A stretch of 63,981 nt of DNA, counting the filler, from Malassezia furfur (taxonomy: Eukaryota), in NCBI GenBank assembly GCA_052055015.1. It is 6 parts of 6 records of this genome, joined end to end, with 100 filler letters (N's around TTAATTAATTAA, not from the genome) between each part and the next. Parts side by side here need not be neighbours in the genome. Positions count along the whole stretch, not along the records: positions 1 to 10,964 come from JBQJIT010000378.1; positions 11,065 to 21,980 come from JBQJIT010000379.1; positions 22,081 to 32,963 come from JBQJIT010000380.1; positions 33,064 to 43,937 come from JBQJIT010000381.1; positions 44,038 to 54,911 come from JBQJIT010000382.1; positions 55,012 to 63,981 come from JBQJIT010000440.1. One strand, 5' to 3'. Positions within the stretch are counted from its first letter, which is position 1. The number at the start of each line of letters is the position of its first letter. The position numbers and the translations under genes are program-made. The notes under the pieces were generated by a model. It worked only from the letters and a program-made list of their open reading frames with translations. It did no database searches and was not told the origin of the DNA. Shown here in pieces: positions 7,701 to 59,634 of this stretch.

Positions 7701-9570
7701 CTACCCCCGCCCGCGCCCCCCGCCGGTCAGGATGAGCTTGGGCTTGCGTTTCTGGCCCTTGGCGTTGGGCGCGCGCTGCTGCGCCGGCTCGGTGGCCGTG
7801 TCGTGCTGCGACCCGTGCGCCTGCTCCAGGGCGCTCCATGCGTCGTCGAAGCGCTGGGCATCGGCACCAAGCGCCTCGCCGCCCGCGCTCGGCGCCGCAG
7901 GCGTGCCCCACACCGTCTTGTGCGTCGAGGCGGCCGGGCGCTGCGGCACACTCGGCAGCGGCACCCCAAACGCCGCGTCGTCCTCCACGTCGGCGCCCGG
8001 ATGCCGCGGGAAGTACATCTCGGCGCCGACCATGGCCGACTCGCGGAAGGACATGGCGGCCTCGGCGCCCGCCCACTCGTCTCCGTGCGGCCCGTGCGGC
8101 GCGACCGGCGGCGCGGCCTGCTTCTCGGCCTTGGCCCGTGCGCGCTCCTCGCGGTGGTGCTTTTCGTGGTGCCGCTGGCGCCGCTGGCGAAGCATGGTCT
8201 CGAACGGCGCGTAGTGGATCTCGCCCTGCGTCGCGGCAAAGCGCGCCGCGGTCTGGGGCCAGTCGACCTCGAGGAAGGTCACGTCGGACGACATGGGCAG
8301 GTGCGCAATGTACTTGCACTTGCGCCGCAGCTGCTCGTCCATCGTGCCCTCCTCGGCGTGCTGGATGACGATCCGCAGCGTGTCTGGGAAGCGCGCATAC
8401 GCGCCAAAGTGCGCGAGCAGCACCTTGACGTCGAGCGGGTGCAGGAACACATTCTGCCCCGACGCCGCCTGGTAGAAGTAGTAGGCGTCGGCCTGCGTCG
8501 GCGCCGCATGCGCCGACTGCGCCGCATGCTCGACCGCATTGCGCGCCGCCTGCACACGGCGCAGCGGGGGCGCCTCGAGCTGCACACGCACCTGCGCCAT
8601 CTGCTCGCCGAGCTTCTCGCGCGCGACGCGCAAAAACTCGACGCTGAGCTCGTCGGGCGCGTATGCACGCAGCGCCACGATCTCCTCGTCGATCTCGGCG
8701 ACGTCGCGCTCCAGCGACGCGAGCAGCAGCTCGGGCGTCGCCAGCACCACGCGCGAGAAGACGAGCGCATCCGGCTGGAAGCTATAAATGCCCTCGGGGC
8801 GCGCGGCAGCGGGCCACGTCGCGGAGCGCGGCAGCGCGAATGCCGTGCCGTGCGGGCGCTCGATCAGGCGCAGCGTGAGCTCGGGCGCGCCGGGCGCCGC
8901 CCCGCCGTCTTCCGCAGACTGGGCGGCGAGGTAGGACGCCGTGAACGTCTGCGCCGTGCGCCGTGCGTCGATCCAGTGCACCGCCTTGAGGTCGCGTGCG
9001 TGCACCTCGTCCCAGCAGATGGGGCACCGCTTGCTGTGCCGGTGGCTCAGCACGCCACGCGGCCGGGGACCGTCCTCGGCGACGATGAGGTAGTGCAGGA
9101 TGCATGCGTAGCAGAACACATGCCCACACCGGGTCATGCGCGGCGCGCTCGGCGCCGACAGGCAGATGGGGCAGTTGGTGTCGCTGTGCGCGTTGGGCAG
9201 GTCGCTCGTTGCGCACACAAGCACCTGCTCGATGTCGGCCCAGGGCAGCGGCGCATCGGCGTCGGCGATTTGGGCGGTGCAGTCGTACGTCGGCTTCATC
9301 ACGAAGCGGTACTGCGCATTGACGTAGCCTGTGTGAGTCGCGCTCTGACGTACGCTCGCGGTTGAACGGGCGGTGGTCGTGGCGGCGCGCACGCCGCGGC
9401 CCGCCGGGCGCCGGCGCGCGGGGAGGCAAGGTGAAGGCGAGCAGCTGTGTGAGTGGCGGCGCGCGACGTACGTGGTTGAGCGACTGCGCGCGCTTCTTGC
9501 TGCCCTGCCGCCCGCCATGAGCGGCGTCGTGCGGCGTGGTGTGCGCATCGCGGCGGTTCGTGCCCGCCAT
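7701..9570 (-). CDS. MAG2: C3HC4 RING E3 ligase, RNF10/Mag2 family
   Basis: Introns 9445-9471 (27 nt) and 9329-9353 (25 nt). Splicing gives QSLNHLLAFTLPPR and FNRERYVNAQYRF. RING motif CPICL..CGHVFCYAC..CPIC; YYFYQAASGQNVFLHPLD. Confidence 0.85.
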
Positions 9571-9638
9571 TGCGTGCTCGGTCGTCGTCGACGTCGCCGG
9601 CGTCGCTACGGACCACGTGGGCAAGCACGTGGAGGTGG

Positions 9639-10964
9639 CTACAGGAGGCCCTGCCGCTTGAGCAGCTCGTAGGTCTTGCGGGTATACGCCTGGGTCAGTG
9701 CGCCACGTACGTTGCCGTGCTCGTCCTCGATCTCCTCCGTGTCGCCATCGTCGACCTGCTCGAGCTTCTGCTGCTGCTTGAGCTTGTCGTACACTGGGTG
9801 AGAGAGGCAAGTACGTACGCGCAAACGCATCCTGGATCCGCGTCACGTCGCGGAACTGCACCGTGTTGGGCAGGCCAAGCGCGCGCATCCCAAACGTGTG
9901 CCGCGCCTCGGAAAAGTGCTTCTCAAACACCTTGCGCCCGCGGTACACATGGTCCGAGCAGATCTCGCACTTGTACTCCACCGACAGGCCCTGCAGCTTG
10001 TACATCCAAAAGGGGATCGGCTTGCCGTCCCACCCGAGCGGCAGCTTCAGCGGGTTGTGCACCTTTTCAGTGACGTCGTGGTCGCGCACCGCTTTCTCAA
10101 TCGCCCGCTCGTAGCCCATCCCGCCCGTCGCCATCGCCTCTTCCTGCTCGGCCTCGAGCGCTTCCGCCTCGTCCTGCCGCTCGCGGTCGGTGAGGGCGGC
10201 CTTGCGCTCGATGTTGGACCGCGTGTCCTCGCGGACACTTGCGAGCACCTTGGCCAGCGCCTGCACCACCACCTCGTCGCGTGCAAGTGCCTTGGCCCGC
10301 GCGACGCGCTTGGCCTGCTCGAGCGCCGCGTCGGGGCGCTTGGGCGGCGCGCGCGGCGCCTCGCGCTTGGCCGCGAGGGCTGCGAGCTTCTGGTGCCGCG
10401 CCGAGGTGAGGTGCGCGTCAAAGACGGTCTGCTTCGCATAGCTCCGCTGGCACACCTCGCACCAGATGCCGCCGCCGGCATCCGACGTGGCCTTGTCGGG
10501 GAACAGCGCGTGCTCCTTTGCCTCCCAGCCCGGCACCGTGCCGCGGTCCCAGTTGGACTCGAAAAACTCGGCCGCATGGATTTCGGGCGCATCCATGTCC
10601 TCGAGCGGCCGCGTCTTGTGCAGAAAGGCGGAGAGGTAGTGCCGCAGGCTCACGATGTACGTATGGTAGGCCTCAGTGCGCTTGGTTGATGCCGGAGCGC
10701 CCGCATCCGCGCCGCACATGCGGTCGAGGCGCGCGAGGTACTCGAGGTAGCTGATGCGCTCGACCCCTTTGAGGTTGATATACATTTCGTACTGCTCGTA
10801 CAGGTCCAAAAAGCGCCCGCTCATTTCCTCGCCGCTGAACTCTCGGTCCATCATCCCGACATCCGACATGAGCTCCTCGCCGCGCGCGAGGATCGACGGC
10901 GTGGCCGTAGTCTGCAGCGCGACGGCATTTTCGGGGTATCGCTTGTAGTAGTCCTGCACCTTGC
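9639..10964 (-). CDS. PRP9: SF3a subunit 3 (Prp9/SF3A3), 5'-truncated at the contig end
   Basis: NPLKLPLGWDGKPIPFWMYKLQGL..CEIC..H..H zinc finger. Introns 9794-9818 (25 nt) and 9690-9710 (21 nt) restore the C-terminus EDEHGNAYTRKTYELLKRQGLL*. Confidence 0.95.
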
Positions 10965-11064: not shown

Positions 11065-11847
11065 GACTCGGCGGACGTGCGCCTGGTGGTGTGCGAGAAC
11101 GAGGTGCTGCAGCTGCAGAGCGCCAACGCCGAGCTGGCGCGCGAGCTGCGCGTCGTGAAGAGCCATGCGAGTTTCCTACTAGGCCTCTACAAGTGGCGCG
11201 GCGAGCAGGCCGGCGGCGATGCCGCACAGCTTGCGGACCTCCAGCAGCGCCTCGAAGACGAGACGCGCGCGCGGCAGCGGGCCGAGCGCCGGCTGCAGGA
11301 GCTACAGCTGCGCGCGCCGCGCGCCGCGTCGCTGGACGTGGCCGACGCGCCGGCACCGGAGCCGCCGGAGCCGCCGATGCCTGCCGTGCTCGACGAGAGT
11401 GCGGGCGAGGCTTCGAGCCCCGTGCTGGACGCACGCCCACTCCCCGAGCGTCCCGCGCCCCGCCCCCGCGTACGTCGCACCGCACTGACCCAGGGCCGAC
11501 CGCGCAAGAAGCCGGATACGTCGAGCTCGCCGCCCGCGCCGCCGCTCGAGGCGTTTGGCATCGCGCGGAGCGAGAGCCCACGGCCCGAGCCCTCCGCCAC
11601 GCCCGAGCCTGCGGTGCTGCAGCCGGGCATGACGCCGATGCTGCGGCGCGCCGGCGCGACGTCGGCGCTGGCGCTGGACGTGGAGTCCACCCCGATGCTC
11701 GATGCGGGCGATGCGTCGCCTGCACGCAAGAAGAAGCGCAAGCTGCTCAGCGCGAACCCCAACTTCCTGCGGCTGAACGAGGCGTCCGCGACGCTCTCGC
11801 CGGGGCACGACCTGCTGATGCCCCTGTCGCCCGCGCAGCTGCCGTAG
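11065..11847 (+). CDS. Hypothetical coiled-coil / Pro-rich protein, 5'-truncated
   Basis: Frame is open from the contig edge. Heptad-like segment LQLQSANAELARELRVVK, basic cluster RKKKRKLL, GC3-rich codons. Confidence 0.6.
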   Translation, partial: DSADVRLVVCENEVLQLQSANAELARELRVVKSHASFLLGLYKWRGEQAGGDAAQLADLQQRLEDETRARQRAERRLQELQLRAPRAASLDVADAPAPEPPEPPMPAVLDESAGEASSPVLDARPLPERPAPRPRVRRTALTQGRPRKKPDTSSSPPAPPLEAFGIARSESPRPEPSATPEPAVLQPGMTPMLRRAGATSALALDVESTPMLDAGDASPARKKKRKLLSANPNFLRLNEASATLSPGHDLLMPLSPAQLP

Positions 11848-11948
11848 TGCTTATCGAGATGCCGATAGGAAGTGATCGGGCGTGCCCGATAGGATCGGCC
11901 TTGGCGCCTTTGCTTATCTTGGCAGAGAGCGGCGTGCGACTGCCCCTC

Positions 11949-12476
11949 ATGCCATTCCTCGAGCATTTCCATCGCGGGAAGAAGACGGAGCAGGAGGCCA
12001 CGCCGGAGCGTGGCCGCACCATGACCGGGACAGGGCGCGGCGGCGCCGGCAACGTGCGTGCACACGGCTTACCCCAGATCCATTACGCAAGCAAGGACTC
12101 CGCCAACGACGAGGACGACACGCCCAAGGAGACGCCGCACATCATGCACGTCGGCCGCGGCGGCGTCGGCAACGTGCGCTCCCCGTCGCGCGACCCCGCG
12201 GACCGGCGCCGCGAGGAGCGTGACGAGCGCGAGCTCGACGAAATGCAGGACGCCGAGCTCCGGCAGCACTATCACACTACGGGGCGCGGCGGCCGCGGCA
12301 ATATGCCCTTCCCCCAGGAGGAGGAGCGTGGGCGCCGCTCCACGCCTACAGGACCCGGCCGCGTCGCGGGTCTCGTGCGGTCCTTGTCGCGCTCGCGCTC
12401 GCGCGAGCCGTCCGACGTACGGCGCCGCGAAAGCTCCACGACGCGCCGTTCAAACCTGAACCAGGTCGCAGAGTAG
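11949..12476 (+). CDS. DUF3602 / Par32-like protein with GRGGxGN repeats
   Basis: Three GRGG(A/V/R)GN motifs. Removing intron 12054-12077 (24 nt) gives the canonical GRGGAGNI. Confidence 0.75.
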   Translation: MPFLEHFHRGKKTEQEATPERGRTMTGTGRGGAGNVRAHGLPQIHYASKDSANDEDDTPKETPHIMHVGRGGVGNVRSPSRDPADRRREERDERELDEMQDAELRQHYHTTGRGGRGNMPFPQEEERGRRSTPTGPGRVAGLVRSLSRSRSREPSDVRRRESSTTRRSNLNQVAE

Positions 12477-12521
12477 GGGTACGAAAGTATGGGATTCGGC
12501 TTGGGTATCGTAAGGGAATAG

Positions 12522-14800
12522 TTAATCGGAAGGTTCATCTAGGAAGAGCGCATCACGCGACGGGCTGGGGCGGCCGTGCGGATTGTGGGGTAGCACAAGC
12601 GCGACCCGCCGCGGCGCGCGCCGCGGGCCGTGGGCGCGGAATTTCTTGTAGTTGCGCACCGCCGGGGCCTCGGGGGTTTCGGCACGCACGAGCGGCACAT
12701 AGCGCACCTGCACAAACGACGTGCGCTGCAGTGACGTGTCCATCGACGCGCTCGGTGGAGTCGCCGAGCGCGCACGAGCTGGGGCGGCCGCAGGCGTCGC
12801 CAAGCCCGGAGAAGCAATCGGAGACGGCGAGCGATCTGCTCCTGCTGCATCAGCGGCTGCCGGAGATAAGGAGCGCGCCGCCGGTGCTGGACGCGCGGGC
12901 TCGTCCGGCGGCAAGGTGCGCCCAGTCCCCGCCGCGCCCTCATGCCCCGAGAGCGAAGGAGTCGGCACCGACGCAGCGGGCTCCTGCGTCAGGCCGAATA
13001 GTTCATCGAGCAGGAACGACCGCCGTGCTTGCCGCGTACCGGCGAGGCGCTGCAGCGCCGTCGGCGGCGGTGTACTTGACACCGGCGCACGGACCTCGGC
13101 ACTAGCCTGGAAGGGGCCGGTCGCAGGCGGCAGCATAAATACGTCGCTCGCATCCAGTGGTGCCTCGGTGCGTGGCAAGACAGATGCCGGGCTGGGGGAT
13201 GCCTCGCGTGCATGTAGGGGTGTAGGGACCGGCGACCCCTCCTGAGGCGCCGCACGTGGCTCCGGAGCCCTTCCGCGTTGCGCCTCGGGGGGCGACGCAC
13301 GCCGTGGAACGGCCGGTTGTGGGTCGGTACGCCGGGCCCCTCGCTCTGGTTCGGCGCGAACAGTGTCCAGAGTCGGATCGGTAATGTCTTCCAGGCTCGG
13401 GCTATCCGACAGAGGCATCTCCTCCGTGGGGTCCATCGTCTCATCCTGTGGCCGCTGCTCTGGCGAGTACAGCGAAATGTCGCCCGCGTACGCCGCAGGA
13501 CCCGCCGGCTGCGTCGGTGGAAATACATCGATTTCGCCATCGTGCCTCGCCTGGTCCTCCCGCATGCTTGGTGGTGAGGCCGGCCCTTGGGTCCCGGAAA
13601 GCAGCAGCGTTGCGTCGTCCTCGGCATCGTGCGCGTCCTGCCCTGCAACGTACAGTTCCGCACACGTCCGGGCCTCGAGGATGCACTCGGCCACGGCCGT
13701 CACGCCTTGCGGCATCACGCGGATCCGGAAACTGCATAAGTCGCCCACGTACCGCCGCGCCGCCTCGGTCACGAGGGATGTCCAGGGCGCCATCGTCTCG
13801 CCGCACAGCACAAACGTTTCTTGCACGGGCACCGGCGTAGGCCGCGCCGCCCAGTGGGCATCGGCGGCCACCTGTGCCTCGCGCAACATGTGCTCGGCGT
13901 CCCGCACCGAGCCCAGTGGGTGTTTTCGGAGGTCGTGCACCACGACGTGGCCCTCGGCCGCGATGGCCAATTGCTCGAAATCCGTCTGCGTTAGTCAGGG
14001 ACCTACATAGCGCCGTTCGGGCCCAGGAAGCACAAATACCAGTGTCGTGCCACGAAAGAGCATTGCGCGTTTGGACGATGGCGCGAGCTGCGACGTGGAC
14101 AGCGGCGTATCGAGCGCCAACCGCGCGTCTAGCGGCGGAACGTACAGGCGGCTCTCTGGCCACGCACTCTCGGCTGGAGACGCTATAGCCGCCTCGACAT
14201 ACGCTGCCGTCACAATAGGGATCCCACGGACGAGCGCGAGGAGCTGCGTACGGTTGGGACGCACGTGCGCGACGCACAGATGTGTGCAGCGCACGTCGAG
14301 CGACTCGCGCACCGTCACGAGGTGCACGCCGCTGGCGCATGCACGACGGCGGACGTCCTCGGCCTCGAGCGACGGCACACGCACGATGCCGACCGTGCAC
14401 GGCACCCAGTGCAGCTCGAGCGAGACGTCGTTCACGAGGCGGACACGCGCGCGGTCGGTGAGCGGGATGGGCGTCTCGACACGGATGCGCTGCTCCACGC
14501 GGTTTTTGCCGCGGAACGTCTCCACCAGCGAGCCCGTTTTGCTGCGTGCGTGCATGATCCAGCACACTTGGGGTATATACGCAGGGTCGCCCAGCTGCTC
14601 GGCGGACATCGACGCGACCTGCAGGGTGCCTGCCATGCGGCTCACCCGGAGCATCGGTATACATAGGTCCACCGCGCCCTCCTTGCGGCCCACCGTGTAC
14701 TCGCGGCCTGTATGCAGGACGCGGGACGTGGGTGGCGCTGCGCATCAGTCGAGGAATACGTACCGTCCTCGCCATCGAACCACGAATGCACGAACCACAT
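12522..14800 (-). CDS. NBS1: Nibrin/Xrs2 (FHA-BRCT), mirror copy
   Basis: Reverse-complement copy of 18245-20523. Confidence 0.8.
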
Positions 14801-15254: not shown

Positions 15255-16522
15255 ATGTACAATTATCGGCCGCGGGACGGGCGGCCACAGCCGTACTTGA
15301 GCCGGTCTTCGGGCATGCGCACGCCCGAGTGGGGCGGGCGCAGCCTCGACTTGGATGTGCGCCTGACGCCGATCCAGTCCTATGTTGGTACGTGCCATTC
15401 CTGACGAAGAACGCTGCTGTGAATCCGGCACGGAAACGCTCAACTTGCCGCTTGCGCTCGAGCTCGCCGATTATGTGAACACAAAACGCGCCAACAGCGC
15501 GCGCGAAGCCGTGTTTGAGACGCTTGGGAAGATCAACTCGCGCGTGCCACACGTTGGCTTGCTCGGCCTCGATGTGAGTAGTTGGTTTGGCTGACCCAGC
15601 TGCTCGACATTCTTGTGAAGAACTGTGGGTACCCCGTGCATCTCCAGCTCGGCACGAAAGAGTTTCTCAACGGGCTCGTGCGGCGCTTCCCTGAGCGCCC
15701 GCCGATGCACCCGAGCCCCGTCATGATCCGAATCCTCGAGATGATCCACGAATGGCGGCAGACGATCTGTGTCACGAGCAAGCACAAAGAGGACTTGGTC
15801 CACATCCGCGACATGCACCGGCTTCTTATGTACAAAGGCTACCGGTTTCCCCGCGTGGATGCGCGCAACGCCTCTGTGCTCAACAACGATACGGCGCTGC
15901 AGTCGCCCGAGGAGCTCGAAGAGGAGAACCGCATCGCCCAAGGCGCCAAGCTCCAGGAGCTCATTCGGCGCGGCACGCCGCGTGATCTGCAGCAGGCACA
16001 GGAGCTGATGAAGATCATGTCGGGTGCCGAGCCAGAGGCCAACGTGCAGACCAAGCATGTGGTCAAGGAGCTCGACAAGGTGCAAGCGCGCGCGAAGCTG
16101 CTCAACGACATGCTTGACCAGGCGAAGCCGAACGAAAAGTTTGTCTCGGGCGATGCGTATGACCAAGTCGCGTCGAACCTGCGCAGTGTTCAGCCGCGGC
16201 TGCAAAAATGGATCACCCAGGCTGAGGAGGAGGAATCCGACCAGCTTCAGCGGTTCCTGGAGGTGAACGACCTGATCAACCAGTCGCTCACGCGCTACGA
16301 TGCACTCGTGGGAGGCGACACGACCAAGGCGCAAAAGTCCAAGGCCAAGATCGACTTGATATCGTTTGACGACGACGAGGAGAGCCAAAGTGCTCCGCCG
16401 GCTGCGCAGGCCTCGTCGTCAAACCTGGGCGCGCTGGACGAGCTGGCCTCGCTGTCGCTTGGCGGGGCCGATGCGCCGCACGTCTCGCGCTCCGCCGCTG
16501 CGCAGGCGGCGAGTGCGGCGCC
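15255..16522 (+). CDS. GGA: GGA clathrin adaptor (VHS + GAT), cut by the palindrome axis; GAE domain not present
   Basis: Introns 15388-15409 (22 nt) and 15574-15599 (26 nt). VHS motifs LELADYVN and LLDILVKNCGYPVHLQLGTKEFLNGLVRRFPERPP; GAT motif AKLQELIRRGTPRDLQQAQELMKIMSG. Confidence 0.88.
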
Positions 16523-20523: not shown

Positions 20524-20568
20524 CTATTCCCTTACGATACCCAAGCCGAATCCCATACTTTCGTACCC

Positions 20569-21096: not shown

Positions 21097-21197
21097 GAGG
21101 GGCAGTCGCACGCCGCTCTCTGCCAAGATAAGCAAAGGCGCCAAGGCCGATCCTATCGGGCACGCCCGATCACTTCCTATCGGCATCTCGATAAGCA

Positions 21198-22080: not shown

Positions 22081-24312
22081 GCTGCTGGGCCGGGCCAGGG
22101 GCTCGACGGGGGTATGTGTGCGAGAGGTCTCAGTCGCAGGGCTGGCAGCCTTGGCCACGGCGGGCTTTGGCGGCGTGGAGGGGCTTTGCATGGCCGTTGC
22201 GGGGATGGGCGCAGGCTCGGCCCTGGGTATCGGTGGTGGAGAGGAGGCATCTTGGAACTCCGTGGGCGGGGTGGCAGACCGCTTGCGTGGGGCCGTCGAT
22301 GGTGGCGGAGAAGATGGTACAGGCACTTGCGCTGCCACTGGCTCGGGCGGCGGCTTGGCATCCAGCGCGGCGCCTTCGCTGGTCGGCGGTTCGGCCCGCA
22401 TCGGCGGTTCGGGCCGTTCCGCGGGGGGTATGGTGGGCGGTGCAGGGCGCTTGGCGATGCTCTCTTTGGAGGGGCTAGGTGTCATTTGGTGCGCCGGCAC
22501 ACGTTCCCTCGCTCCTGGCCCCTTGACCGCCTCGTCGTGCTGAAGTGGGGTATCCTGTGACGTGGGCTTCGGGGGAAGGAGGTCGTGCATCGAGCGCTCC
22601 GCCTTGACCTTGGGCATCGCTGCACCCTCCCATGGGGTATCTTGGGGCTTGGCAAGGGACACGGGGGCAGGTTGTGTCGAGCTCGCCTGCTCCGCCGCCT
22701 TGGGCTCTTCAGACGCCTCCCGGAGCTGCGGAGGTGGCACCGTGCTGGGCAGCTCGGGCGTGGAGCTGTGCTCAGCGCCGTGCGTGGCATCGGCGGGGAC
22801 GTCGACGGCAGGCGCTGCGTCCCCCTGCGGAATCGCCACGTCCTCCCACTCGTCATCGGAGGCGTCGTGTGCCAGACCAACATCCTCGTCGCTCTCCACC
22901 GCCACTGGACGCCGTGCGGCTTTTCGGCGGAGCGCTTCGCTGATCGGCGGCGCAGGCACCTCGACGACCTCGTCATCAGGCGCCTCGCGAAACAGCGTCG
23001 AGGGCGCATGCGGACGCGCCCGCCCGTACATGCGCTCCTCGCGTGCCTCGGCACCCGACTCGGTATGCTTCTGACGGCGGTGGTGCTCGGCACGTGCGCC
23101 CAGCAGCTGGAGCGCTCGTTCCTTGCGCACCACCGGATCGCTCTCCAGGTGCACGAGCGCGTCGAGCTCTGGGTCGGGCGCGGGCGCCACGTCGGGTATC
23201 TCGACATCTTCCAGCGCAAGCGCGTCCAGATCGTCGTCGTCGTCAATGTGGGCCAGCGGCGCCCGGCGGCGCTCCTGCTCGTCGACGTCGATCGCCTTGT
23301 CTTGCGACGTGCCGGCATCGCGCGTACCGAGCGCCCACCCGCCATCGCCCTCGTCGAGGTGCACGAGGACGTACTCACGGTTGCGCGCGCCAGCGACACG
23401 CACGGGCACCTGGATGTGTGCACTGCTAATCTCGTCGGTGACGGTGAGCACCTTTTGCGTGAGGTCATTGCGCGTACGCAGCCCGGCGATCTGCGCGCGC
23501 GAAAAGTCGATGGGCGTCGGGGCAGCGGCGAGCATGTCCTGTAGGCGCTGGTACGAGGTCGTACGCGACTGGGCGCGCAAGTCGCCCACGAGCTCGTACT
23601 GCAGCTCCGGCGGCAGGCTGCGGAACAGCTCCGAGTTGGTGTCGAGGTCATCGGGCGCGAGCTTGTTCATCAGCGCACGCAGCTCGCTCTCGGTCGCGAG
23701 ACGCAAGTCTTGCTTGCGTGCCGTATCTCCCGGTAGCGGCTCCTCGAGCGCGGGCAGCTGGTAAGGATCCTTATGGTAGTCCTTGCGTTTGGGTTTCTCG
23801 GACGCAACGGGCGCCTCGTTCAGCCGGCCGGACACCTGCGGGCGGTTGGTGCGCCCAACACTGTCGTAGTACACTGTGTTGTCCTCGAGCCCCTCGTCGT
23901 GCTCGGGCGCGGGACCATGGACGTGCGCCAGCGCCGCCTGACGCAGCTGGGCGGCGAGCAGCTTTTCGGCGGCACGTGCGTGCGATTCGACCGCATGCGT
24001 CTTACGCTGCTTGCGGTTCGCGAGCGTGCGCCGCTTCTGCACCGGCGCACCGCCGTCAAACACGAATACGGGGCGGATGCCGTAGAAGAGCAGCTTGAGG
24101 ATGCGCCACAGGAAGCCAAGCAGGTGCGCATTGGCCAACGTGCGACCCTCCTTGTCGCGCATCGCCATCTGGAAATGGTACAGCCAGATCGACGAGTCGA
24201 TCGCCAGCCGCTTGCCCTGGAGCGACTCGAGCCTGGGTCAGCGCGCCTTCTCTACGTACGTCACCGGCCGCGCCGTGGGCTGCAGCAGCTGCCACAGTCC
24301 CTGGACTCCCAT
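22081..24312 (-). CDS. RAD2: XPG/Rad2 structure-specific endonuclease, 3'-truncated
   Basis: MGVQGLWQLL, then intron 24233-24259 (27 nt, in-frame stop), then LESLQGKRLAIDSSIWLYHF..KLLFYGIRPVFVFDGGAP (XPG-N domain). Confidence 0.95.
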
Positions 24313-36921: not shown

Positions 36922-37744
36922 ATGGGACGCGGTACGTACACCGTCCAGCTAACATGTAGTGATCCGTGCTCAGCGTAAGAGCGGTGGCATCTTCAAGGCT
37001 CACACGCGTCTGAACAAGGCTCCGGCGAAGCTCCGTGCTTACGACTTCGCCGAGCGCAACGGCTACATCCGTGGTCTTGTCAAGGAGATCATCCACGACG
37101 CTGGCCGGTATGTTTGACGCATTTTGCTGACCCACAGTGGTGCTCCCCTTGCCCGCGTGACGTTCCGCGACCCTTACCGCTACCAGCTGCGCACCGAGAC
37201 CTTCATTGCTGCTGAGGGTATGCACACGGGTCAGTTTGTGTACTGCGGCAAGAAGGCGCTCCTGAGCGTCGGCAACGTGCTCCCCCTGAGCTCGCTCCCC
37301 GAGGGTACGATTGTGTGCAACGTCGAGGAGAAGTCGGGTGACCGTGGCGCGCTTGCCCGCACCTCGGGCAACTACGCGACCGTCATTGGCCACGACACCG
37401 ACAACAACGTCTCGCGCATCCGTCTCCCCTCGGGTGCCAAGAAGACCGTGTCGAGCTCGGCGCGCGCCACGATCGGTGTTGTTGCTGGCGGTGGCCGTAT
37501 CGACAAGCCCCTGCTCAAGGCCGGCCGTGCCTACCACAAGTACAAGGTCAAGCGCAACAGCTGGCCCCGTACTCGTGGTGTGGCTATGAACCCCGTGGAC
37601 CACCCGCACGGTGGTGGTAACCACCAGCACATTGGTCACTCGTCGACCGTCAAGCGCGGCTCCGTCCCCGGTCAGAAGGTCGGTCTCATTGCCGCCCGCC
37701 GCACCGGTCTCCACCGCGGTACCACCAAGGTCCGGGACGCCTAA
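36922..37744 (+). CDS. RPL2: 60S ribosomal protein uL2 (L2/L8)
   Basis: MGRVIRAQRK after removing intron 36932-36959 (28 nt); second intron 37108-37137 (30 nt); [23 protein letters not shown]. Confidence 0.98.
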
Positions 37745-39592: not shown

Positions 39593-40101
39593 CTACCAGC
39601 TGCGGTACGGCACAAAGGCGCCATCGAGCGTAATCTTGACGCGGTCGCCGTCCGGGCCTTGTATTTTGTCGACGTGCACACGCAGATCGACCGCACTCAT
39701 GACGCCGTCACCACACTGCGTGAGTGCACGGCGCACACCTTTTCTTGGATCAGGCCTAGGATCGGACGACCATATACCATAAAGACTTCATACAGGCGGT
39801 ACAGACACGGCTCGCTGGGCGGCACCGGGTCTAGCCCTCCGCGGCGTGGTGTGAAACGAGCGGGGCCCAGATAATGCGAGATGGAATCGCGGATCCGCAA
39901 CAGACCTTGGAGCTTGCTGGCTTCCTCTTGCGTGGGCATGAATAAGCCATAGAAGCTGCATCAAGCACCGCGAGCGTACATGGCTGCTACATAGACCTCG
40001 TCTTTGTCGAGTTCCTGGGCAATGTCGCTAAACTTGAGCCGCCCATTCGCTTTGGAGAAGCGCATCCTGGCCGAGAACTGGTCCTGGGTCAGTTCGTCCA
40101 T
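39593..40101 (-). CDS. CYN1: Cyanate hydratase (cyanase), divergent paralog
   Basis: Introns 39956-39979 (24 nt, in-frame stop) and 39716-39738 (23 nt). [48 protein letters not shown]. Confidence 0.88.
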
Positions 40102-40431: not shown

Positions 40432-40939
40432 CTACCAACGGCGATAGGGCAAAAACTTGCCGTCGAGGGTGATTTTGACGCGGTCGCCCTTGGGGTCCTC
40501 GACCTTTTCGACATGGCCACGGAAATCGATGGCGCTCATGATGCCGTCGCCAAACTGCGTCAGTGTGTGCGCACGCACCTTTTCGTTGATGAGGCTCCGG
40601 ATGGGCCGGCCGTACACCATCACGGCCTCGAACAGGCGGTACAGGATGGGGTCCTGTGGAGGCACCGGATCCAACTGCCCGCGGTCAGGGAAGTAGTGCT
40701 CGCCGAGGTACTCGCCGACGTAGTCGATGCCGAGTGCCTTGTTGAGGTTTTCGACGTCGCCCTCCTCCGGCTTTGCCTGTCCGTAGAAGCTGGGTCAGTG
40801 CGTGTGCGACGTACATGGCGGCGACGAACAGCTCGTCGCGACCGAGCTGCTGGGCGAGGTCTGCGAACGTAAGCCCCTTTTCGCTCTTGATCTGGCGGAG
40901 ACGCTCGAAGAACTGGGGGTATGTAAGGTTGGCGCTCAT
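40432..40939 (-). CDS. CYN1: Cyanate hydratase (cyanase), canonical copy
   Basis: Introns 40790-40814 (25 nt) and 40555-40578 (24 nt). [45 protein letters not shown]. Confidence 0.94.
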
Positions 40940-41183: not shown

Positions 41184-43729
41184 CTACTTGTAGCGCTTCT
41201 TGGCCGTAGTGATGTGCTTGCGCAGCCGCTTGCTCTTCTCGCGGAGCGACGCATTCTTCTTGCTGCGCACGCCCCAGCTCTTGGCGACCATCTGGAAGTT
41301 TTTCCCGCGCGCCTTTTGCCGGTTCGTGGTACTGCTGTACTGCTCCTTGTTCTTCTTGCCCTTGGAGCTGCCAAACTTGCCGCGGTCCTCGCGCCCGCTC
41401 TGAATGCTCTTCATACGCTCCTCGTAGTCTGCCTTGGCCTTCTTGCGGGGCCCCAGGATATCGCTCTCGTCCACGACGTCGCTCGTGCCGACGGCCGTCG
41501 CGCGCTTCTTGGACTGGAGCGCGGCGAGCTCGCGGCGCGCCGCGGCGCCGGCCGCGCCGGACTGCTTCGCGGCCTCCTCGGCCTGCTGCAGACGCAGCTC
41601 GTTTAGCTTGGCAAAGTCAGCGGGCGTCAGGATCTTGGTGGTGGCGAGCTCGAGCAGCTTCTCGTTGTCCTGTGGCGCCTCCTGCGGTGGTGCCTCGGCG
41701 GACGCCTCGTCCTCGTCGCTGCTCGCCTCGGCGCGCTGCGCCTTGGCCTGCTGCTCGGCACGGCGTCGGCGCCGCGCCTCGCGCACGCGCTCGTGGACGG
41801 GCCGGGTGTCCTTGGGCTGTGCGGCGTCCTCGGCGGGCTTTTCGTCGTCGCTCAGATCGAGGTCGCTGCGGTCCAGCGAAAAGTGGGAGTCTGCGTCGTC
41901 GTCGGAGCTGACCTTGATCCAGCCGGTGGACGAGTCGGAGTCGCTGTCGGAGGCCTCTTCGAGCTCCCAGCCCTGCCACTCGTCGTTGTCGTCTTCTTCG
42001 CCGGCCTCCTTCTTGTGCTCGAGGTGCTCTGCGAGAAGTTCGAGGCCCTGGATGCCGTGCACCTCGTTGCGGTCCACGCCGAAGCGCGCCGGCGATTTGC
42101 CGCCCGCGAGCGCGATGGCGCCCGCCTTGCCGCGGTCGACGCGCCGCAGCATCGCGGGGTTCACCTCGCGGTAGAGCTGCATGAGCCCGCGCGACGCGGC
42201 GCTCACGCCCTTGTCCTTCGACTTGCGGTAGTCGACCAGGTCGTGCAGCAGATCCTCCTCCATGCACCACGGCTGCCGGCGGCACACCTCGCGGATCGTG
42301 TTGATCCCCGCGGCGACCACCTCGGCGCTCACACCGGGGTGCACAAACCCGTATGCGATCTTGCGGATCGCCGGCGTGAGCATGTCGGTCGGCGACTGGT
42401 CGTGCACGGACTGCGCCAAGGAGACGAGGATCAGCGTGATGTGCAGCTGGTGCGGCACGAGGTACTTGCCGAGGTACGAGTAGAACGGCAGCACAACGAG
42501 GCGGTGCGTGCCGATCACGCGGCTCAGCAGCTGGATGATGCGCACCTTCATCTCGAGGTTGTGCCGCTTGTCGCCGCGGCTCAGATTCTCAAACAGGGCG
42601 TCGGCGAACGCCTGCGGGTCGTTCAGCAGGTGGATCGCGGCCATGTTGCTCGTCTCCTTCTCCTCCTTTTCGAGCTCCTTCTCGCTCTGCTCCTTGCGCC
42701 GGCGCCGCGCCTGGGCCTGCGCGAGCTTCAGGCGGCGCTCGCCGGCTTTGCTCTTGCGCCCGACCTTGCGCTGGTGCTGCAGGCGGCCGACGTTCGGGAT
42801 CGCCGCCTCCTGCTCGCTGCCCTCGTCGTCGCTGTCGCCGGTCGCCGACTCGGCCGCGTGCAGGTCGCCGAGGAAGAAGCGCACCGCTGACGCTTGCACC
42901 TTGGGGTGCGGGTGGACACACGCGCGCGCGAGCAGCGCGACGGTGCGTGTGTCGGTCCAGATACGCCGGCGCCACATTTCCGCCGCGACACGCACTGCCC
43001 AGAGCGCCTCGGTGCGCCCCGCGAGCTCCGTGTCGGCGCGGCGCAGCACCACCGGCCCGTTCTCCTGCATCCCGCGCTCGACCATGCCAAAGAGCAGGCC
43101 CTGCACCATGCGGTTGAGGCGCATGTTGCTCGACGCGCGGTTCGCCTGTTTGATGTCCTGCACGATGGTGTGCAGAATGGCCTTGCGCAGCTCCGACGAG
43201 GTCGTCGTGCTCAGCAGGGGGAAGAGCGTGCGGAGGAGGCTGGGTGAGGACGGTCAACGTACGTCTCGCTCGTGATCATATTGCGGTTGCGCAGCATCGT
43301 CAGCGCACGGAAGCACGCGTGGCGCACGTCAGGGCCCAGCTGGGCGTGGTGCACGAGGAGCAGCTCGGCAAGGTGGTCCGGCAGCGGCTTCGTCACCTTG
43401 GGGTAGCTCGGCGCAAGCTGCGTGACAAAGGTGAGCAGCTGCTGGAACTGCTCCTGCTGGTCCTTGGTGAGGCGCACCGCGTGCGCCTGCGCATCGCCCG
43501 CGCCCTCGACCTGCTGCCCGATGCCCGAGGCATAGATGCGGCGCAGACTCTCGTAGTGGTTCCACTGCGCGAGGAACTCTTCTGCGTACGCCTCCGGCTC
43601 GCGCTTGAGCAGGTTCTGCAGCGCGGGCAGGTTCGACGTGTTCAGAAGGCCACGCGCCTTGGACCGGTGCATGAGCCCATTCTCACGCACCATCGCCGTC
43701 GGGCGCGGTGCGGCACTCGCCTTGGCCAT
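41184..43729 (-). CDS. SDA1: 60S ribosome biogenesis factor Sda1
   Basis: NLPALQNLLKREPEAYAEEFLAQWNHY; intron 43240-43262 (23 nt); AGINTIREVCRRQP, KILTPADF, SSTTNRQKARGKNFQM. Confidence 0.95.
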
Positions 43730-45594: not shown

Positions 45595-45595
45595 T

Positions 45596-51500: not shown

Positions 51501-52014
51501 TCGAGCTCCTTGAGGAGCGAGTCGACGTCGGCATCCGAAATCGTCGTTCCCTGCGGGAGCAGCTCTGACAGCATATAGTCTGCATCTTCGGAGTATGCCG
51601 ATTTGCTGGCAACCGAAGGAGTGGCCATCAGTGTCGGGACAGGTGGGATCCGTTCACGACCGCTTCCCGCCGGCTGAGCGGGCGTTTCTGGTTTGGGTTG
51701 CGGCGCTGCCACCGTTTCCACGCCCAGAAACTGCCGCAGTTCGCCATATTCCACTGCCTCCTCAAACTCCTCGTAGGAGCCGACCCATTCGTTACGCACG
51801 AGCAGCCCTGGAATGCGCGGATCGCGTGCCTGACTCAGCGTAGAATACGTACCTTTCGTCGCCATCGCCGCTTGGCTTCGTCGTCCGAGGCGAGATCATA
51901 GAATACAAAGGGGATTTTTTGTGCCGTGAGCACGGTTATGTATCGGTCATGCCGATTCCTGGTCACTGGGTTGCCCAGGATCGACGTGGTGAACAGCTCG
52001 ACCTCCGCACTCAT
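45596..52014 (-). CDS. About 2130-aa protein: N-terminal SH3BGR/glutaredoxin-like domain plus a long acidic disordered region with internal repeats
   Basis: Exon 1 MSAEVELFTTSI..YDLASDDEAKRRWRRK, intron 51830-51852 (23 nt), then ARDPRIPGLLVRNEWVGSYEEFEEAVEYGELRQFL and a stop-free 6.2-kb exon. Confidence 0.8.
47405..48160 (-). repeat. Five coding repeats, consensus EERVAVHQVVDRFSALEPPLH
   Basis: Five copies of (H)Q(V/T)(V/L)DRFS(A/G/S)LEPPL in the translation; the three central copies are spaced 138 nt (46 aa) apart. Confidence 0.85.
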
Positions 52015-52109
52015 GAACCCTGGGAGCAACACTGACCGGCCACGGCGGAGTGTCACGTGCATTCGATCGGCGGCCGCGCGTCCGACGCCTCGTTGCTCCG
52101 ATCGACGAC

Positions 52110-53004
52110 ATGGCCAGTGTGCAGCTCGAGGAGCAGCGCAAGAGCGGCTTTGATTTCTCGAATCATACGCGCAATGCGGCTCTCGCGGCTAAGGGACATG
52201 CGGTGCCGCGCGCGACCAGCACGGGTACGACCATCGTCGGCCTGATCTACAAAGATGGTGTAGTGCTCGGCGCGGACACACGCGCGACGGAGGGTCCCAT
52301 CGTCGCCGACAAGAACTGTGAGAAGATCCACTATATCTCGGACCACATTCGGTGCTGTGGTGCCGGAACTGCAGCGGATACGGAATTCGTTACGAACCTG
52401 ATTTCGAGCAACATTCAGCTCCACGAGCTCAACACTCGCAAGCGCGCGCGTGTGGTGACGGCGATGACGCTGCTGAAGCAGCGGCTGTTCCAGTACCAGG
52501 GACACATTGGAGCTGCGCTTGTCCTGGGTGGCTACGACACGACCGGGCCGCAGCTCTTCACCATTGCGCCGCATGGCTCGACGGACAAGCTGCCCTATGT
52601 CACGATGGGCTCCGGTTCGCTTGCAGCCATGTCTGTGTTTGAGAGCCGCTGGCGTCCCAATATGGAGGTACGTGTATTCACTCATCATGCAGGAAGCGGA
52701 TGCCATTGAGCTTGTCGTGGATGCAATTGAGTCGGGCATCTTTAACGACTTGGGTTCGGGTTCGAACGTCGACGTGTGTGTGATCCGCGAAAAGACGACG
52801 CAGATGCTGCGTAACTACCGCAAGCCCAACGAGCGTGTGCACAAGGAGAAGGACTACAAGTTCCCGCGGGGGACCACGGCGTGGACGAAGGAGCAGATTT
52901 ACGACATGATTGTCCAAGAGAGTACGTCTCCGCAAGCTTACCCAGATGTGATCGACCTGGACACCACGCAGGGGTCCGAAGGGATGGAGATGGATGCCTC
53001 GTAA
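52110..53004 (+). CDS. PUP1: 20S proteasome subunit beta-2
   Basis: GFDFSN propeptide, [41 protein letters not shown]. Introns 52668-52692 (25 nt) and 52922-52945 (24 nt). Confidence 0.97.
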
Positions 53005-53160
53005 AAGACATAGACACGTCCTTGCTGGCTTGTGTGCCTGGAGCGCCCGCGCCAGGGCCACCTGGTGGCCGAGGCCCCCGCTGACTCAGCAACACAAATA
53101 CGGCCGCGCGCATTGGCCGGTGAGCCGGCGTGAGTGGAGTAGCACCTCGGTAGCAACACG

Positions 53161-54822: not shown

Positions 54823-54911
54823 GCGAGTGTGTGGGGAAGTGGAGGCCGCGCCGGGGGACGGCGCGGGGGGCCGCGTCTGTAGAGTCGATCCGTGCACCAT
54901 TTAGTCATTCC

Positions 54912-55011: not shown

Positions 55012-55068
55012 TCGCACCGTCGCCATGCCGACACAACGCACAACGCGAGGCGACGCGCGACGCGTTAG

Positions 55069-56104
55069 TCACGTGCTATACACCCAAAGCCGTATGGACG
55101 CGTCCTGCTCAAGGCCCGCCGAGGCCAGCACGGGCAGTGTGGGATGCACCTGTGTGAGCAGCAAACGTACCGCAATCGCCGCGACGGCATCGCGATGTCC
55201 AACGAGTTTTTGGACAACCTGCTTCGTTTGCAGATCCCATAGGTATAATTCACGGTCTTCGCTCGGGGCCACGACAAGCGTCCGGGGCAACGCCGCGGAT
55301 GGCAGGTACGCAAACAGCGCGGTCCCCGCATACTTGGTATTCACATGTCCCGTGTACGTTTTGAGCACGCGCGCGTTCGCTAGGTCCCACAGCCGCACCG
55401 CGCTGTCGAGCGACATGGCCAGCAGCTGCAGCGATGACGGCGAAAAGCGCACCGACACGAGCGGCGCTTGGTCAACGTGCTGCAGCGTGCGCAAGCAGTG
55501 CCCGGAACTTGTATCCCAGAGACGACTGTGTCAGCCATCCACGCACGTACATTAGACCGTCATACGAGCACGAGGCAATCATCGTCCCGTCGCGACTAAA
55601 GTCGACATCGGTGACCGCCTCGGAATGCGCCGAGATCGTGCGGTGGCTCGTCCCGCGCTGTAGATCCCATAAACGAATTGTTTCATCAAAGCCTCCGCTG
55701 ACCAGCAGCGTGCTCTGTGGGTGGCACGCGACACAAAAGACATAGGACGTGTGCTCTGCAAACGTATGCACCAGCCGCGCCTTCTCCACCTCCCACACCC
55801 GTACAGTGCGATCGTCTGATGCACTGGCAACATACTTGCCGTCTCGCATCCAGCACACACTGTTCACACCGCCGTCGTGGCCCATGAGCGTATGCAGTAG
55901 GCGACCGGTGCGCGTTGACCAGATCTGCAGCTGCCGATCGGCGCCAGCTGACAGCAGCTGCTCGCCATCCGGCGAAAAGGCAACGCTGGCAACGGACCGC
56001 GTATGCCCATAGAGTGTGTAGAGCAGCGTATACGCGCCGCTCGCCTCTAGCTCCATCGGCGCGTCGCGCGCGGCGCGTGCGTCCGCAGCGCCGGCGTCGG
56101 CCAT
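55069..56104 (-). CDS. SWD3: WD40 protein WDR5/Swd3 (COMPASS)
   Basis: About 7 WD repeats; HTSYVFCV, VSGGFDETIRLWD, AHSEAVT, SCSYDGLIRLWD, KTYTGHVNTKY. Introns 55526-55550 (25 nt) and 55150-55170 (21 nt). Start codon uncertain. Confidence 0.85.
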
Positions 56105-56138
56105 CGTGTGGAGGAAATTCGCCGTCGCTTCGCCCATC

Positions 56139-56702
56139 ATGTCGGTGCCGGCGTTCCAGCGGCGACGCCGCGGCAATGTCGAAGTGGAAGACGCAAGTCA
56201 GGGGCGGTTAGGCCCTGGTATGTGGTGCACGACTCACACAGAATTCCAGGACGCTGGATGCTTGCTCATCTCCGAGGTGTTCCTCTTCTTTTCGCGCCCG
56301 GGCGAGACCATGGAGGGCGACACGCAGGGCACAGCGTAGGTGCATCTCGCTCACACAGTGTCGCGCAGAAGACCAAGGAATATGTCGACGACTTCAGTCG
56401 GTACAAGGAGCAGTCGACGATTCGTGAAGTGCGCGCGTACGTCTCGCGTTGCGCTGACCCAGCTTGCTGATCAAACACGCGGCGCAGCCCGACCTGGATG
56501 GCACCGTGTCCGACGACAAGGGCCTCCAGCTCACGCAGTTCGAGATGGCCCAGCTCGCGAACCTGGCCGTGTCGGACGTGGATGAGGCACGCACGTTAAT
56601 TCCTACGTATGTATGCCGCTCTCACCCAGACTCGCCAGCAAGGATGAAGCGCAGCTCGAATCGCTCCTGAACGAGCTTGCCGCGATTCGCCGGTTTGCAT
56701 GA
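56139..56702 (+). CDS. RPB4: RNA polymerase II subunit 4
   Basis: Introns 56218-56241, 56336-56358, 56437-56462 and 56607-56629 (23-26 nt). EDAS..LGPEF..CLLISEV..KTKEYV..FSR..FEMAQLANL..EARTLIPTL. Confidence 0.93.
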
Positions 56703-58044: not shown

Positions 58045-58144
58045 CGTGCCCGATCCGATCGGGAGAAGATGGCGCAATCGCCCAAGATAACTCGTACGCA
58101 ATCAAGTTTAATTGGCTCGCACGGCGGCCCCCCGCCTCGCGCCT

Positions 58145-59634
58145 ATGACTCTTCGGCCATCTCGGATACACCCTTCCCTGTCCTTGATTCGCGCCATGAG
58201 CTCGTGGAATAAGCCTACGCGATTTCTCAACAGCCCTGCGCCGCGTGTCCAGCCCGAGCTGGCACGCGGAGTGGATGTATGGACCTTTTTCAACCCCATG
58301 GTGTTCCCCACCGCGGTGAACCTGGGGCAAGGGTTCATGAACTGGAAGCCGCCCGCATTCATTCTAGACGAGCTCACCAAAGAAATGCATGAGCGGGTCG
58401 AGCTGCACCACTACTCACACGCTCGGGGCCGTCCGCGCTTGCGTGCCGCGGTGCGCGACGTCTACTCGCAGTCCTTCCACAAGCCGTCGGAGGACACTGA
58501 CCTATCTGCCGGCGTAGTGCGTCTGGACGACGCTGGGATGCCGGCACAGCGCCCGGACCTCGGCGTGCCGCTTAACCCCGAGACAGAGATCGTGATTACC
58601 GCTGGTGCAAACGAGGCCATGTACTCGTCGCTCGCCGGCTTCCTCGACAAAGGAGATGAGGTAATCTTGTTTGAGCCCTTTTTCGACCAGTATGTGTGTG
58701 AGGCCAGCTTCAATGGCGGCGTGCCCGTCTATGTGCCCATGATCCCGCCGAACAGCAAGGAGCAGCGCCCTTCGGCGAATGAGTGGCAGTTTGACTGGGA
58801 CTTGCTAGAGCAAAAACTCGCGAGTCCGCGTGCCAAGGCGCTCTTCCTGAACACGCCGTACAACCCAATCGGCAAGGTGTGTTCATTGGCCGAGCTGCAG
58901 CGGCTCGCGCAGCTGTGTATCAAGTACGACATTCTGGTCATTGCCGACGAGGTGTACGACTGCCTGACCTTTGATGGCCAAGAGCACATCCGCATCGCGT
59001 CGATTGAGGGCATGTGGGAGCGCACGCTAACGGTCGGAAGCGCCGGGAAGACGTTCTCGTGCACGGGTTGGCGCGTAGGATGGATTGTGGGCGCTCCCCA
59101 CCTCGTTGCGCCGGCAATGGCCGCGCACGTGCGAATCACGTTCAGTGTCAACTCTGCGTCCCAGGAAGGTGCCGCAATCGGGCTCGAGCAAGCGGACGCG
59201 CATGACTTCTTTGAACAACAGAGGGAGCACTATGTGGCGCGGCGACAAGAGCTGTTCGAGGCGCTAGACTCGCTGAATTTACCCTACTCTGTGCCACACG
59301 GCTCTTACTTTGTGCTGGTCGACGCGTCGCGCATCCAGATCCCCGCCGACTTCCCCTTCCCCGACGAGGTGCGCAAAAAGCCGCGCGACTACCAGATGTG
59401 CTGGTTCCTGGCGAAGGTGTGTGACGTGGTTGCGATTCCCGTCACCGCATTCTATTCGGACGGGCACGCGCACGTTGGAGAGAACTACATTCGTTTCGCC
59501 TTCTGCAAGGACAACCAGATAGCAGAGGCCGGCCGACGATTGCAGAAGGTACGTGCTTGGACCCACTCGACCCCGGATGACTAACTACCCCGCAGCTCCA
59601 GCCCTATTTGCAGTCGGCTGATCCCCAACAATAG
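58145..59634 (+). CDS. BNA3: Class I/II PLP aminotransferase, kynurenine aminotransferase-like
   Basis: VNLGQGF, ITAGANEA, FEPFFDQY, NTPYNPIGKV, DEVY, SAGKTFSCTGWRVGW, IRFAFCK. Terminal intron 59549-59595 (47 nt). Confidence 0.9.

Follow-up and report, generated by a model that had tools for sequence, protein, structure and literature searches.

How short can a spliceosomal intron become, and which of its parts set the limit? The question is raised by a stretch of DNA from the yeast Malassezia furfur (NCBI GenBank assembly GCA_052055015.1), 63,981 bases long and called the window here, whose genes are interrupted by very short elements that begin with GT and end with AG. We curated 39 such elements in 20 genes and refer to them as micro-introns. 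With a probability of about 0.9, they are ordinary U2-type GT-AG spliceosomal introns that have been miniaturised to little beyond the three splicing signals. Their motifs, their geometry, their excess over chance and the collinearity with homologues that is restored by removing them can be read directly from the DNA. From these features we infer excision from RNA, the identity of the branch nucleotide and the factors that would recognise the 3' end. An original prediction had listed 38 introns in 19 genes, and its length classes agree with ours to within one or two.

The window consists of six pieces with N spacers between them (1-10964, 11065-21980, 22081-32963, 33064-43937, 44038-54911 and 55012-63981), and its G+C content is about 65%. 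The second piece (11065-21980) is a perfect palindrome, with arms at 11065-16522 and 16523-21980 that are 100% complementary and have zero spacer. Its fold point falls within a VHS/GAT gene, which is cut there, and all six candidates of one arm are repeated in the opposite arm. Such symmetry suggests an artefact of assembly or reads, for instance a hairpin adapter that was missed, and not a biological structure. Because this piece is palindromic, its features were counted once, leaving 58,023 unique bases. Each of the six pieces contains at least three candidates, and the intron density in the window is 0.67 per kilobase (kb). The 541-residue exon of a RING-finger gene is 100% identical to P0148, a protein that carries the name M. 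furfur at NCBI. An exon of an NBS1-like gene shows 98% identity to M. brasiliensis and 95% to M. furfur. These protein matches assign the DNA to the M. furfur group.

Excess and anatomy of the micro-introns

We scanned the window for a strict motif consisting of GT[AG]NGT, up to 45 nucleotides (nt), CTNA[CT], 0 to 5 nt and YAG. The scan returned 45 matches, or 39 once the mirrored half of the second piece was removed, and 37 of these 39 were no longer than 30 nt. In 200 dinucleotide-preserving shuffles, the same motif occurred 5.8 times on average (standard deviation 2.6, maximum 15) versus 39 times in the real sequence. The excess was about twentyfold among matches of up to 30 nt (37 real versus a shuffle mean of 1.9 and a maximum of 8). 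The reversed sequence gave 12 strict matches with lengths scattered from 19 to 53 nt. Within genes, no strict match lay on the antisense strand.

Curation removed four of the strict matches and added four elements, namely a 47-nt candidate picked by a motif-blind gene finder and three off-consensus introns identified through wide scans, truncated Pfam domains and a comparison of cyanase paralogues. The resulting lengths are 21 nt (six introns), 22 (four), 23 (seven), 24 (eight), 25 (five), 26 (four), 27 (two) and 28, 30 and 47 (one each), with a median of 24. In this 58-kb sample of the genome, 38 of the 39 candidates are at most 30 nt long.

The four discarded matches were an 18-nt match at 37885-37902, which is intergenic; 40084-40125, whose CTGACCCAG end encodes Leu-Thr-Gln where the second cyanase gene begins; 60551-60598, a 48-nt in-frame match without support; and 55526-55546, a nested alternative within a 25-nt WDR5 intron. 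We also rejected 33278-33335, a 58-nt in-frame pick of the gene finder. The sequence CTGACCCAG is the commonest 3' end of these introns and also encodes Leu-Thr-Gln in exons (40078-40101 and elsewhere); motif scans by themselves therefore yield false matches in exons. The read-through translation of many micro-introns likewise terminates in ...LTQ.

At 65% G+C, gene finding from GT..AG boundaries and codon statistics alone strung together false 'introns' and so merged adjacent genes. It therefore did not provide a motif-blind intron set, although many GTACGT...CAG elements were still picked. Limiting the gene finder to GTNNGT starts made its gene models usable. When any GTNNG..AG element with coding flanks was admitted, the wide scans were swamped by in-frame deletions in exons, and their value was confined to the three off-consensus introns.

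Removing the elements changes the reading frame in 22 of 39 cases. Another four are multiples of three in length with an in-frame stop, so that 26 removals repair a frameshift or a stop, in line with the prediction that most would do so. Multiples of three make up 17 of the 39, including the 13 that are stop-free. Intron phases are even (12, 11 and 13 among the first 36 curated introns).

The elements share a simple anatomy. All 39 start with GT and end with AG, the last three bases being CAG in 37 and TAG in two. The 5' site is GTACGT in 28 and otherwise GTAGGT, GTATGT, GTGCGT, GTGAGT, GTGTGC or GTACGC; the pattern GT[AG]NGT fits 37 of the 39 sites, and the exceptions are GTACGC and GTGTGC. 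The branch-like pentamer is CTGAC in 14, CTCAC in 12, CTTAC in four and CTAAC in three, with variants in the other six. CTNAC thus accounts for 33 of 39, and CTNA[CTG] for 38, the last being TTGAT. The strict form CTRAY fits only 18, since the middle base is often C or T. These counts bear out the predicted layout of GT, CTNAC and YAG without a polypyrimidine tract, for which these introns have no room.

The tail after the presumed branch A measures exactly 5 nt in 30 of the 39 elements; it is 6 to 8 nt in another eight, and the 47-nt candidate has a tail of 11 nt. The usual place of this A, 6 nt from the 3' end, had been anticipated correctly. The presumed branch site lies a short, fixed distance from the terminal AG, as in introns with an anchored branch site. 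The spacer from the 5' site to CTNAC is 6 to 13 nt long. In the first 36 curated introns its composition is genome-like, and the bases separating the A from the AG are mostly C and as a rule number just three. U12-type introns carry the 5' signal [AG]TATCCTT and the branch motif TCCTTAAC; none of the 39 elements has a start of the type [AG]TATCC.

A minimum length of 21 nt had been proposed, and no element of the curated set is shorter. Counted from the 5' end, the presumed A stands at position 16 (seven introns), 17 (seven), 18 (seven), 19 (six), 20 (four), 21 (four), 22 (two), 23 (one) or 36 (one), and hence never before position 16. The scan admitted positions from about 10 and was able to detect shorter forms, so the 21-nt minimum is not a search artefact. 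It follows from a presumed A at least 16 nt from the 5' G plus a 5-nt tail. In two introns with 8-nt tails the A is still at position 16 or 17, and the floor thus looks like a limit on the distance from 5' site to branch, with a minimal tail added, rather than on total length.

This anatomy suggests how the micro-introns may be spliced. The 5' hexamer, usually GTACGT, would be read by U1 and later by U6, and U2 would pair with CTNAC and leave the A bulged. The first step would then produce a lariat with a loop of 16 to 23 nt and a 5-nt tail. The 3' site would be the first AG past the branch, set by a constant distance rather than by a pyrimidine tract. Length variation would lie almost wholly in the spacer of 6 to 13 nt, which has no visible constraint, and the floor would equal 16 nt (5' G to branch A) plus 5 nt, or 21 nt. 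A 16-nt floor may be too tight for the side-by-side U1 and U2 small nuclear ribonucleoproteins of yeast and human complexes, which would imply altered early spliceosome assembly. We hold this proposal to be reasonable but unlikely. Under it, U1 might leave before U2 binds stably, or the two ends might be read as one composite site. The choice of the 3' AG would then also have to depend on distance alone.

Collinearity with homologues

We asked of each element whether its removal restores collinearity with homologous proteins or DNA. Four kinds of homology were counted as independent: intron-free orthologous DNA of another Malassezia, orthologues from outside Malassezia, solved structures and Pfam collinearity. 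Such evidence supports 29 of the 39 elements, and annotated Malassezia orthologues support another five. The putative introns and candidates are listed below with their strands and the evidence for each. L001, L002 and L029 denote contigs described after the list, and identifiers beginning with P denote public or predicted proteins.

9329..9353 (-): 25-nt intron, RING-finger gene; frame change; P0148 joins ...NRER to YVNAQ... exactly there
9445..9471 (-): 27-nt intron, RING-finger gene; in frame, no stop; P0148 joins ...SLNH to LLAF... and omits the 9 read-through residues
9690..9710 (-): 21-nt intron, PRP9/SF3a60; in frame, no stop; sequence GTACGTGGCGCACTGACCCAG, the example given in the original prediction
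9794..9818 (-): 25-nt intron, PRP9/SF3a60; Pfam SF3a60_Prp9_C 1-76 upstream and 77-120 downstream in the other frame
11470..11493 (+): 24-nt candidate, open reading frame (ORF) without family; in frame; motif only
12054..12077 (+): 24-nt candidate, DUF3602 gene; in frame; motif only
13732..13752 (-): 21-nt intron, BRCT/NBS1-like gene; in frame; 7 residues absent from five annotated Malassezia orthologues
13986..14006 (-): 21-nt intron, NBS1-like gene; in-frame TGA; junction gap-free against annotated orthologues
14738..14763 (-): 26-nt intron, NBS1-like gene; frame change; M. vespertilionis orthologue gap-free over the junction
15574..15599 (+): 26-nt intron, VHS/GAT (GGA-like) gene; Pfam VHS 13-66 upstream and 65-141 downstream in the other frame
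24233..24259 (-): 27-nt intron, XPG/RAD2 gene; in-frame stop; gap-free against the uninterrupted L001 ORF; 23-nt intron in the same place in L002
28458..28478 (+): 21-nt intron, DUF2340 gene; in frame; no gap in the alignment with the intron-free L001 ORF
28605..28626 (+): 22-nt intron, DUF2340 gene; Pfam 1-95 then 93-120 over a frame change; gap-free against L001
29194..29215 (-): 22-nt intron 7, CHK1; gap-free against 13 of 14 orthologues and intron-free L001; 2-residue gap in P0001
29409..29429 (-): 21-nt intron 6, CHK1; in frame, no stop; 7 residues absent in 13 of 14 orthologues and kept only by P0001; supported by L001
29650..29675 (-): 26-nt intron 5, CHK1; orthologue alignment and L001
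29784..29805 (-): 22-nt intron 4, CHK1; orthologue alignment and L001
30062..30084 (-): 23-nt intron 3, CHK1; Pfam Pkinase 22-111 then 112-263; orthologues and L001
30150..30173 (-): 24-nt intron 2, CHK1; in frame, no stop; orthologues and L001; 74-nt intron at the same position and phase in L029
30446..30468 (-): 23-nt intron 1, CHK1; orthologues and L001; 22-nt intron in the same place in L002
36932..36959 (+): 28-nt intron, uL2 (RPL8), after codon 3; exon 1 is MGR and exon 2 matches 8eug_A from residue 4
37108..37137 (+): 30-nt intron, uL2; in-frame stop; exon 2 ends and exon 3 starts at 8eug_A residue 53
38636..38659 (+): 24-nt candidate, EXS-family gene; in frame; structure alignment weak
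39716..39738 (-): 23-nt intron, second cyanase gene; 5' site GTGTGC; frame change; position of the first cyanase gene's second intron
39956..39979 (-): 24-nt intron, second cyanase gene; 5' site GTACGC; in-frame stop; 8-residue insertion against the paralogue; position of the first cyanase gene's first intron
40555..40578 (-): 24-nt intron, first cyanase gene; in frame, no stop; solved cyanases have an 8-residue gap exactly at VRAHTLTQ
40790..40814 (-): 25-nt intron, first cyanase gene; upstream ORF, in its own frame, resembles 6xgt_E 35-75 (E-value 0.042) and the downstream exon 71-180
43240..43262 (-): 23-nt intron, SDA1; Pfam SDA1_HEAT 1-57 then 55-364 over a frame change
51830..51852 (-): 23-nt intron, joining an SH3BGR-like exon to a 2,099-codon ORF; branch CTGAG; Pfam SH3BGR 3-50 upstream and 66-98 downstream
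52668..52692 (+): 25-nt intron, proteasome beta2 (PUP1); Pfam Proteasome 2-160 upstream; yeast Pup1 146-221 from the start of exon 2 in the other frame
52922..52945 (+): 24-nt candidate near the PUP1 C-terminus; in frame; motif only; beyond the end of the Pup1 alignment
55150..55170 (-): 21-nt intron, WDR5/SWD3; in frame, no stop; 65 query residues versus 58 in WDR5 chains
55526..55550 (-): 25-nt intron, WDR5/SWD3; Pfam Beta-prop_WDR5 to about 159 upstream and 160 at the start of exon 2 in the other frame
56218..56241 (+): 24-nt intron 1, RPB4; in frame, no stop; gap-free against the full-length relative P0132
56336..56358 (+): 23-nt intron 2, RPB4; gap-free against P0132
56437..56462 (+): 26-nt intron 3, RPB4; gap-free against P0132
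56607..56629 (+): 23-nt intron 4, RPB4; gap-free against P0132; an intron at this site is translated in the related ORF fragments P0125, P0126 and P0127
56884..56905 (-): 22-nt intron, rhomboid protease gene; Pfam Rhomboid 2-99 upstream and 107-139 in the shifted downstream frame
59549..59595 (+): 47-nt candidate, C-terminus of an aminotransferase gene; GTACGT, ACTAAC, C-rich tail and CAG; spliced and unspliced C-termini both open

The CHK1 gene (28720-30563) contains seven of these introns. A metagenome scan with the CHK1 alignment identified L001 and L002, contigs of other Malassezia species. The L001 gene (10001-11599) has no introns, and the L002 gene (1043-2708) has a single intron of 22 nt, at the place of intron 1. 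When the spliced 560-residue CHK1 model was compared with L001, tblastn returned a single segment with 74.6% identity in which all seven junctions were gap-free. Orthologues from Violaceomyces, Thecaphora, Melanopsichium, Sporisorium and other Ustilaginomycotina were also gap-free at the junctions. Altogether, 13 of 14 aligned orthologues were gap-free at all seven, the exception being the public M. furfur record P0001. Intron-free DUF2340 and XPG genes on L001 validate three further window introns.

Several junctions were resolved to the residue. Human SF3A3 has a 7-residue gap exactly opposite VRGALTQ, the read-through of the PRP9 element at 9690..9710, and the uL2 exons match residues 4-53 and 53-251 of the solved uL2 chain 8eug_A. 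The junction at 13732..13752 is gap-free in four of the five annotated orthologues, and P0142 has a gap just after it. At 40790..40814, the last few upstream residues matched to 6xgt_E are read-through past the exon end. At 55150..55170 the 7-residue excess has no residue-level placement, and the repeat alignments end just before the intron.

Some of the host genes have features of their own. The two cyanase (cyanate hydratase) genes lie in tandem on the minus strand (39596-40101 and 40432-40939), with 47% identity between their first exons and 64% between their last, and both intron positions are common to them. At 45599-52026 (-), a short SH3BGR/glutaredoxin-like domain heads the 2,099-codon ORF, the remainder of which has no Pfam match. 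Three genes in the window are related to the spliceosome: PRP9/SF3a60 (9640-10962), AAR2 (35188-36645) and an SF3b145/CUS1-type gene with DUF382 and PSP domains (44119-45594). All three have the usual, complete-looking Pfam domains and are ordinary in Pfam. A 5S rRNA gene is present at 1470-1588 (-; Rfam RF00001, 110 bits). Rfam identified no other RNA family in the window and gave no match in L001 or L002.

Intron age and competing explanations

We compared intron positions between the window and related contigs. The few micro-introns in L001 and L002 are 22 to 25 nt long and have the same layout as those in the window. The XPG intron of L002 occupies the position of the window XPG intron, and the L002 PXA gene has a 22-nt intron (5716-5737) where the window PXA gene has none. 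A distant fungal contig, L029 (G+C 47%), carries a 74-nt intron (10028-10101) whose branch motif is internal and conventional; its codon position and phase are those of CHK1 intron 2. The micro-intron at this site is therefore an old intron that has become shorter. At least some micro-introns are thus old and not new gains, related Malassezia species have lost many of them, and intron content turns over quickly within the genus.

A number of observations weigh against taking all 39 elements as introns. The branch adenosine was assigned by motif alone. Thirteen elements are in frame and stop-free, which makes retention invisible to frame tests, and independent homology covers only seven of these 13. 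Five elements (11470, 12054, 38636, 52922 and 59549) have their motif or frame alone to speak for them, and five more depend on predicted proteins of related species that perhaps share prediction rules. At 12054..12077, a Pfam stretch crosses the element without excess residues, which does not favour removal. The case of 38636..38659 is ambiguous: after removal, Pfam EXS matches 1-103 and then 111-329, and the 7 unmatched Pfam positions could be filled by the 8 'intron' residues, which again does not favour removal.

Many of the 13 in-frame, stop-free elements could be poorly removed and act as facultative coding segments, adding 7 to 9 residues to a sizeable share of the mRNA. In Paramecium, stop-free introns of multiple-of-three length are depleted. 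No such depletion is seen in the window, where 13 of the 17 multiples of three are stop-free and just four have an in-frame stop, in a small sample. The public M. furfur record P0001 also reads through the 21-nt CHK1 element, and Pfam does not favour removal at 38636 or 12054. However, for seven of the 13 elements (in PRP9, cyanase, CHK1 twice, DUF2340, WDR5 and RPB4) the residues in question are exactly absent in homologues outside Malassezia annotation, and the in-frame elements carry the same full set of signals as the frame-shifting introns. We consider widespread retention improbable.

It is also conceivable that the micro-introns are recent gains of the M. furfur lineage, made by copying a short element, and are not shrunken ancestral introns. 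The CHK1 counts of seven in the window, one in L002 and none in L001 would fit such gains, as would the resemblance of micro-intron sequences to one another. This likeness, however, is limited to the splice signals, and the spacers differ, as judged by eye only. The position and phase of CHK1 intron 2 are common to the 74-nt L029 intron, CHK1 intron 1 and the XPG intron are common to L002, and the cyanase paralogues have both positions in common. The L002 PXA intron, not found in the window, means that differences go in both directions. The common old positions also argue against placing these elements among introner-like mobile introns. Recent gain thus seems more improbable still than retention. 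There is next to no probability that the elements are products of misassembly, decayed genes or sites at which translation shifts frame. The perfect palindrome does indicate an imperfect assembly, but GT..AG ends, an extended 5' site and a branch motif with constant spacing are common to all elements, the short class exceeds shuffles about twentyfold, no strict match within genes is antisense, and exact collinearity is restored in 29 cases. None of these explanations (retention, recent gain or artefact) fits the data as well as miniaturised U2-type introns.

Short introns elsewhere and in Malassezia annotation

The novelty claimed in the original prediction was overstated, since short introns are documented for M. 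sympodialis (mean 30 base pairs, bp) and M. restricta (median 30). A review mentions 'very short introns' in Malassezia genes (PMC7426719). The curated annotation of M. sympodialis lists 5350 introns that average 30 bp, and RNA sequencing supports 99% of them (PMC5389616, Table 2); over 7.79 Mb this amounts to about 0.69 per kb, versus 0.67 in the window. How their sizes are distributed is plotted in Fig. S8 of the same paper. For M. restricta, Table 1 of PMC9241646 gives a mean of 37.2 and a median of 30. These species belong to the same genus and size class as the window, and the density in M. sympodialis is similar; the window median of 24 is somewhat shorter. An earlier M. globosa annotation gave introns of 76-79 bp (PMC4634964), a value that probably reflects missed short introns. 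The available text of the M. sympodialis and M. restricta accounts gives sizes and contains no signal geometry, floor or branch position. A search conducted mostly outside subscription journals found no published description of the geometry of Malassezia intron signals.

We compared the micro-introns with those of other lineages. Branch sites anchored to the AG without a pyrimidine tract were described by Irimia and Roy in 2008 for Yarrowia lipolytica (2 nt) and for Trichomonas vaginalis and Giardia lamblia (4 nt), and ACTGAC is given there as the commonest branch hexamer of Ustilago maydis (PMC2483917). The window introns usually have two bases between CTNAC and AG, which is the Yarrowia spacing reported in that paper. 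Y. lipolytica introns are long (median 204 nt) and compact only at the 3' end, whereas the distance from 5' site to branch is also minimal in the window (PMC2483917). Type B introns of Trichomonas, as described in PMC12316389, resemble those of the window in their length of 23-28 nt, their extended 5' motif and a branch motif fused with the 3' motif. That protist is poor in introns and has 24 to 52 of this type in each genome, in most cases a single one per gene (PMC12316389), whereas the window has up to seven introns per gene and belongs to a dikaryan fungus. The density in the window suggests thousands of micro-introns per genome.

Genome-wide intron length modes below 30 nt occur in ciliates, nucleomorphs, dicyemids and myxozoans, with myxozoan medians of 22-27 and Stentor introns of 15-16 nt according to PMC13644364. 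Splice-site motifs are reduced in myxozoans and dicyemids in that account, whereas those of the window are unusually strong. The same 2026 paper lists lineages with introns below 30 bp, and its available text does not name Malassezia. The Malassezia case seems under-noticed though not unknown. The micro-introns described here are a further member of a known phenomenon, and their novelty is limited. The additions are modest: an explicit geometry, a floor of 16 plus 5 nt, stop-free in-frame introns that are not avoided, large disparities in intron number among close species, and two mis-modelled records.

These records illustrate the predicted effect of micro-introns on gene finders. P0001 (chk1 [Malassezia furfur], 502 residues) translates through a 21-nt intron, keeping seven residues, and its N-terminus and four further junctions lack exon sequence. 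P0139, the NBS1-like protein of M. brasiliensis, is without 10 conserved residues beside a 26-nt intron, as if a 56-nt intron had been chosen. Judged by their orthologues, both records are mis-modelled at micro-introns, through read-through, dropped exon sequence or a wrong 3' site. P0148 correctly omits both of its micro-introns. Frame-based checks miss one third of the introns, which are in frame and lack a stop, and Malassezia gene models are easily spoiled by micro-introns.

Introns this short probe the physical limits of the spliceosome. The known ultra-short cases are mostly from organisms that are hard to manipulate, namely ciliates, nucleomorphs and parasitic animals. Malassezia is culturable and transformable (PMC7426719), and in a transformable yeast with strong, simple signals the spacer length and the distance from branch to AG could be varied directly. 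If early spliceosome assembly does prove to be altered, Malassezia would be a genetically tractable model for minimal-intron splicing.

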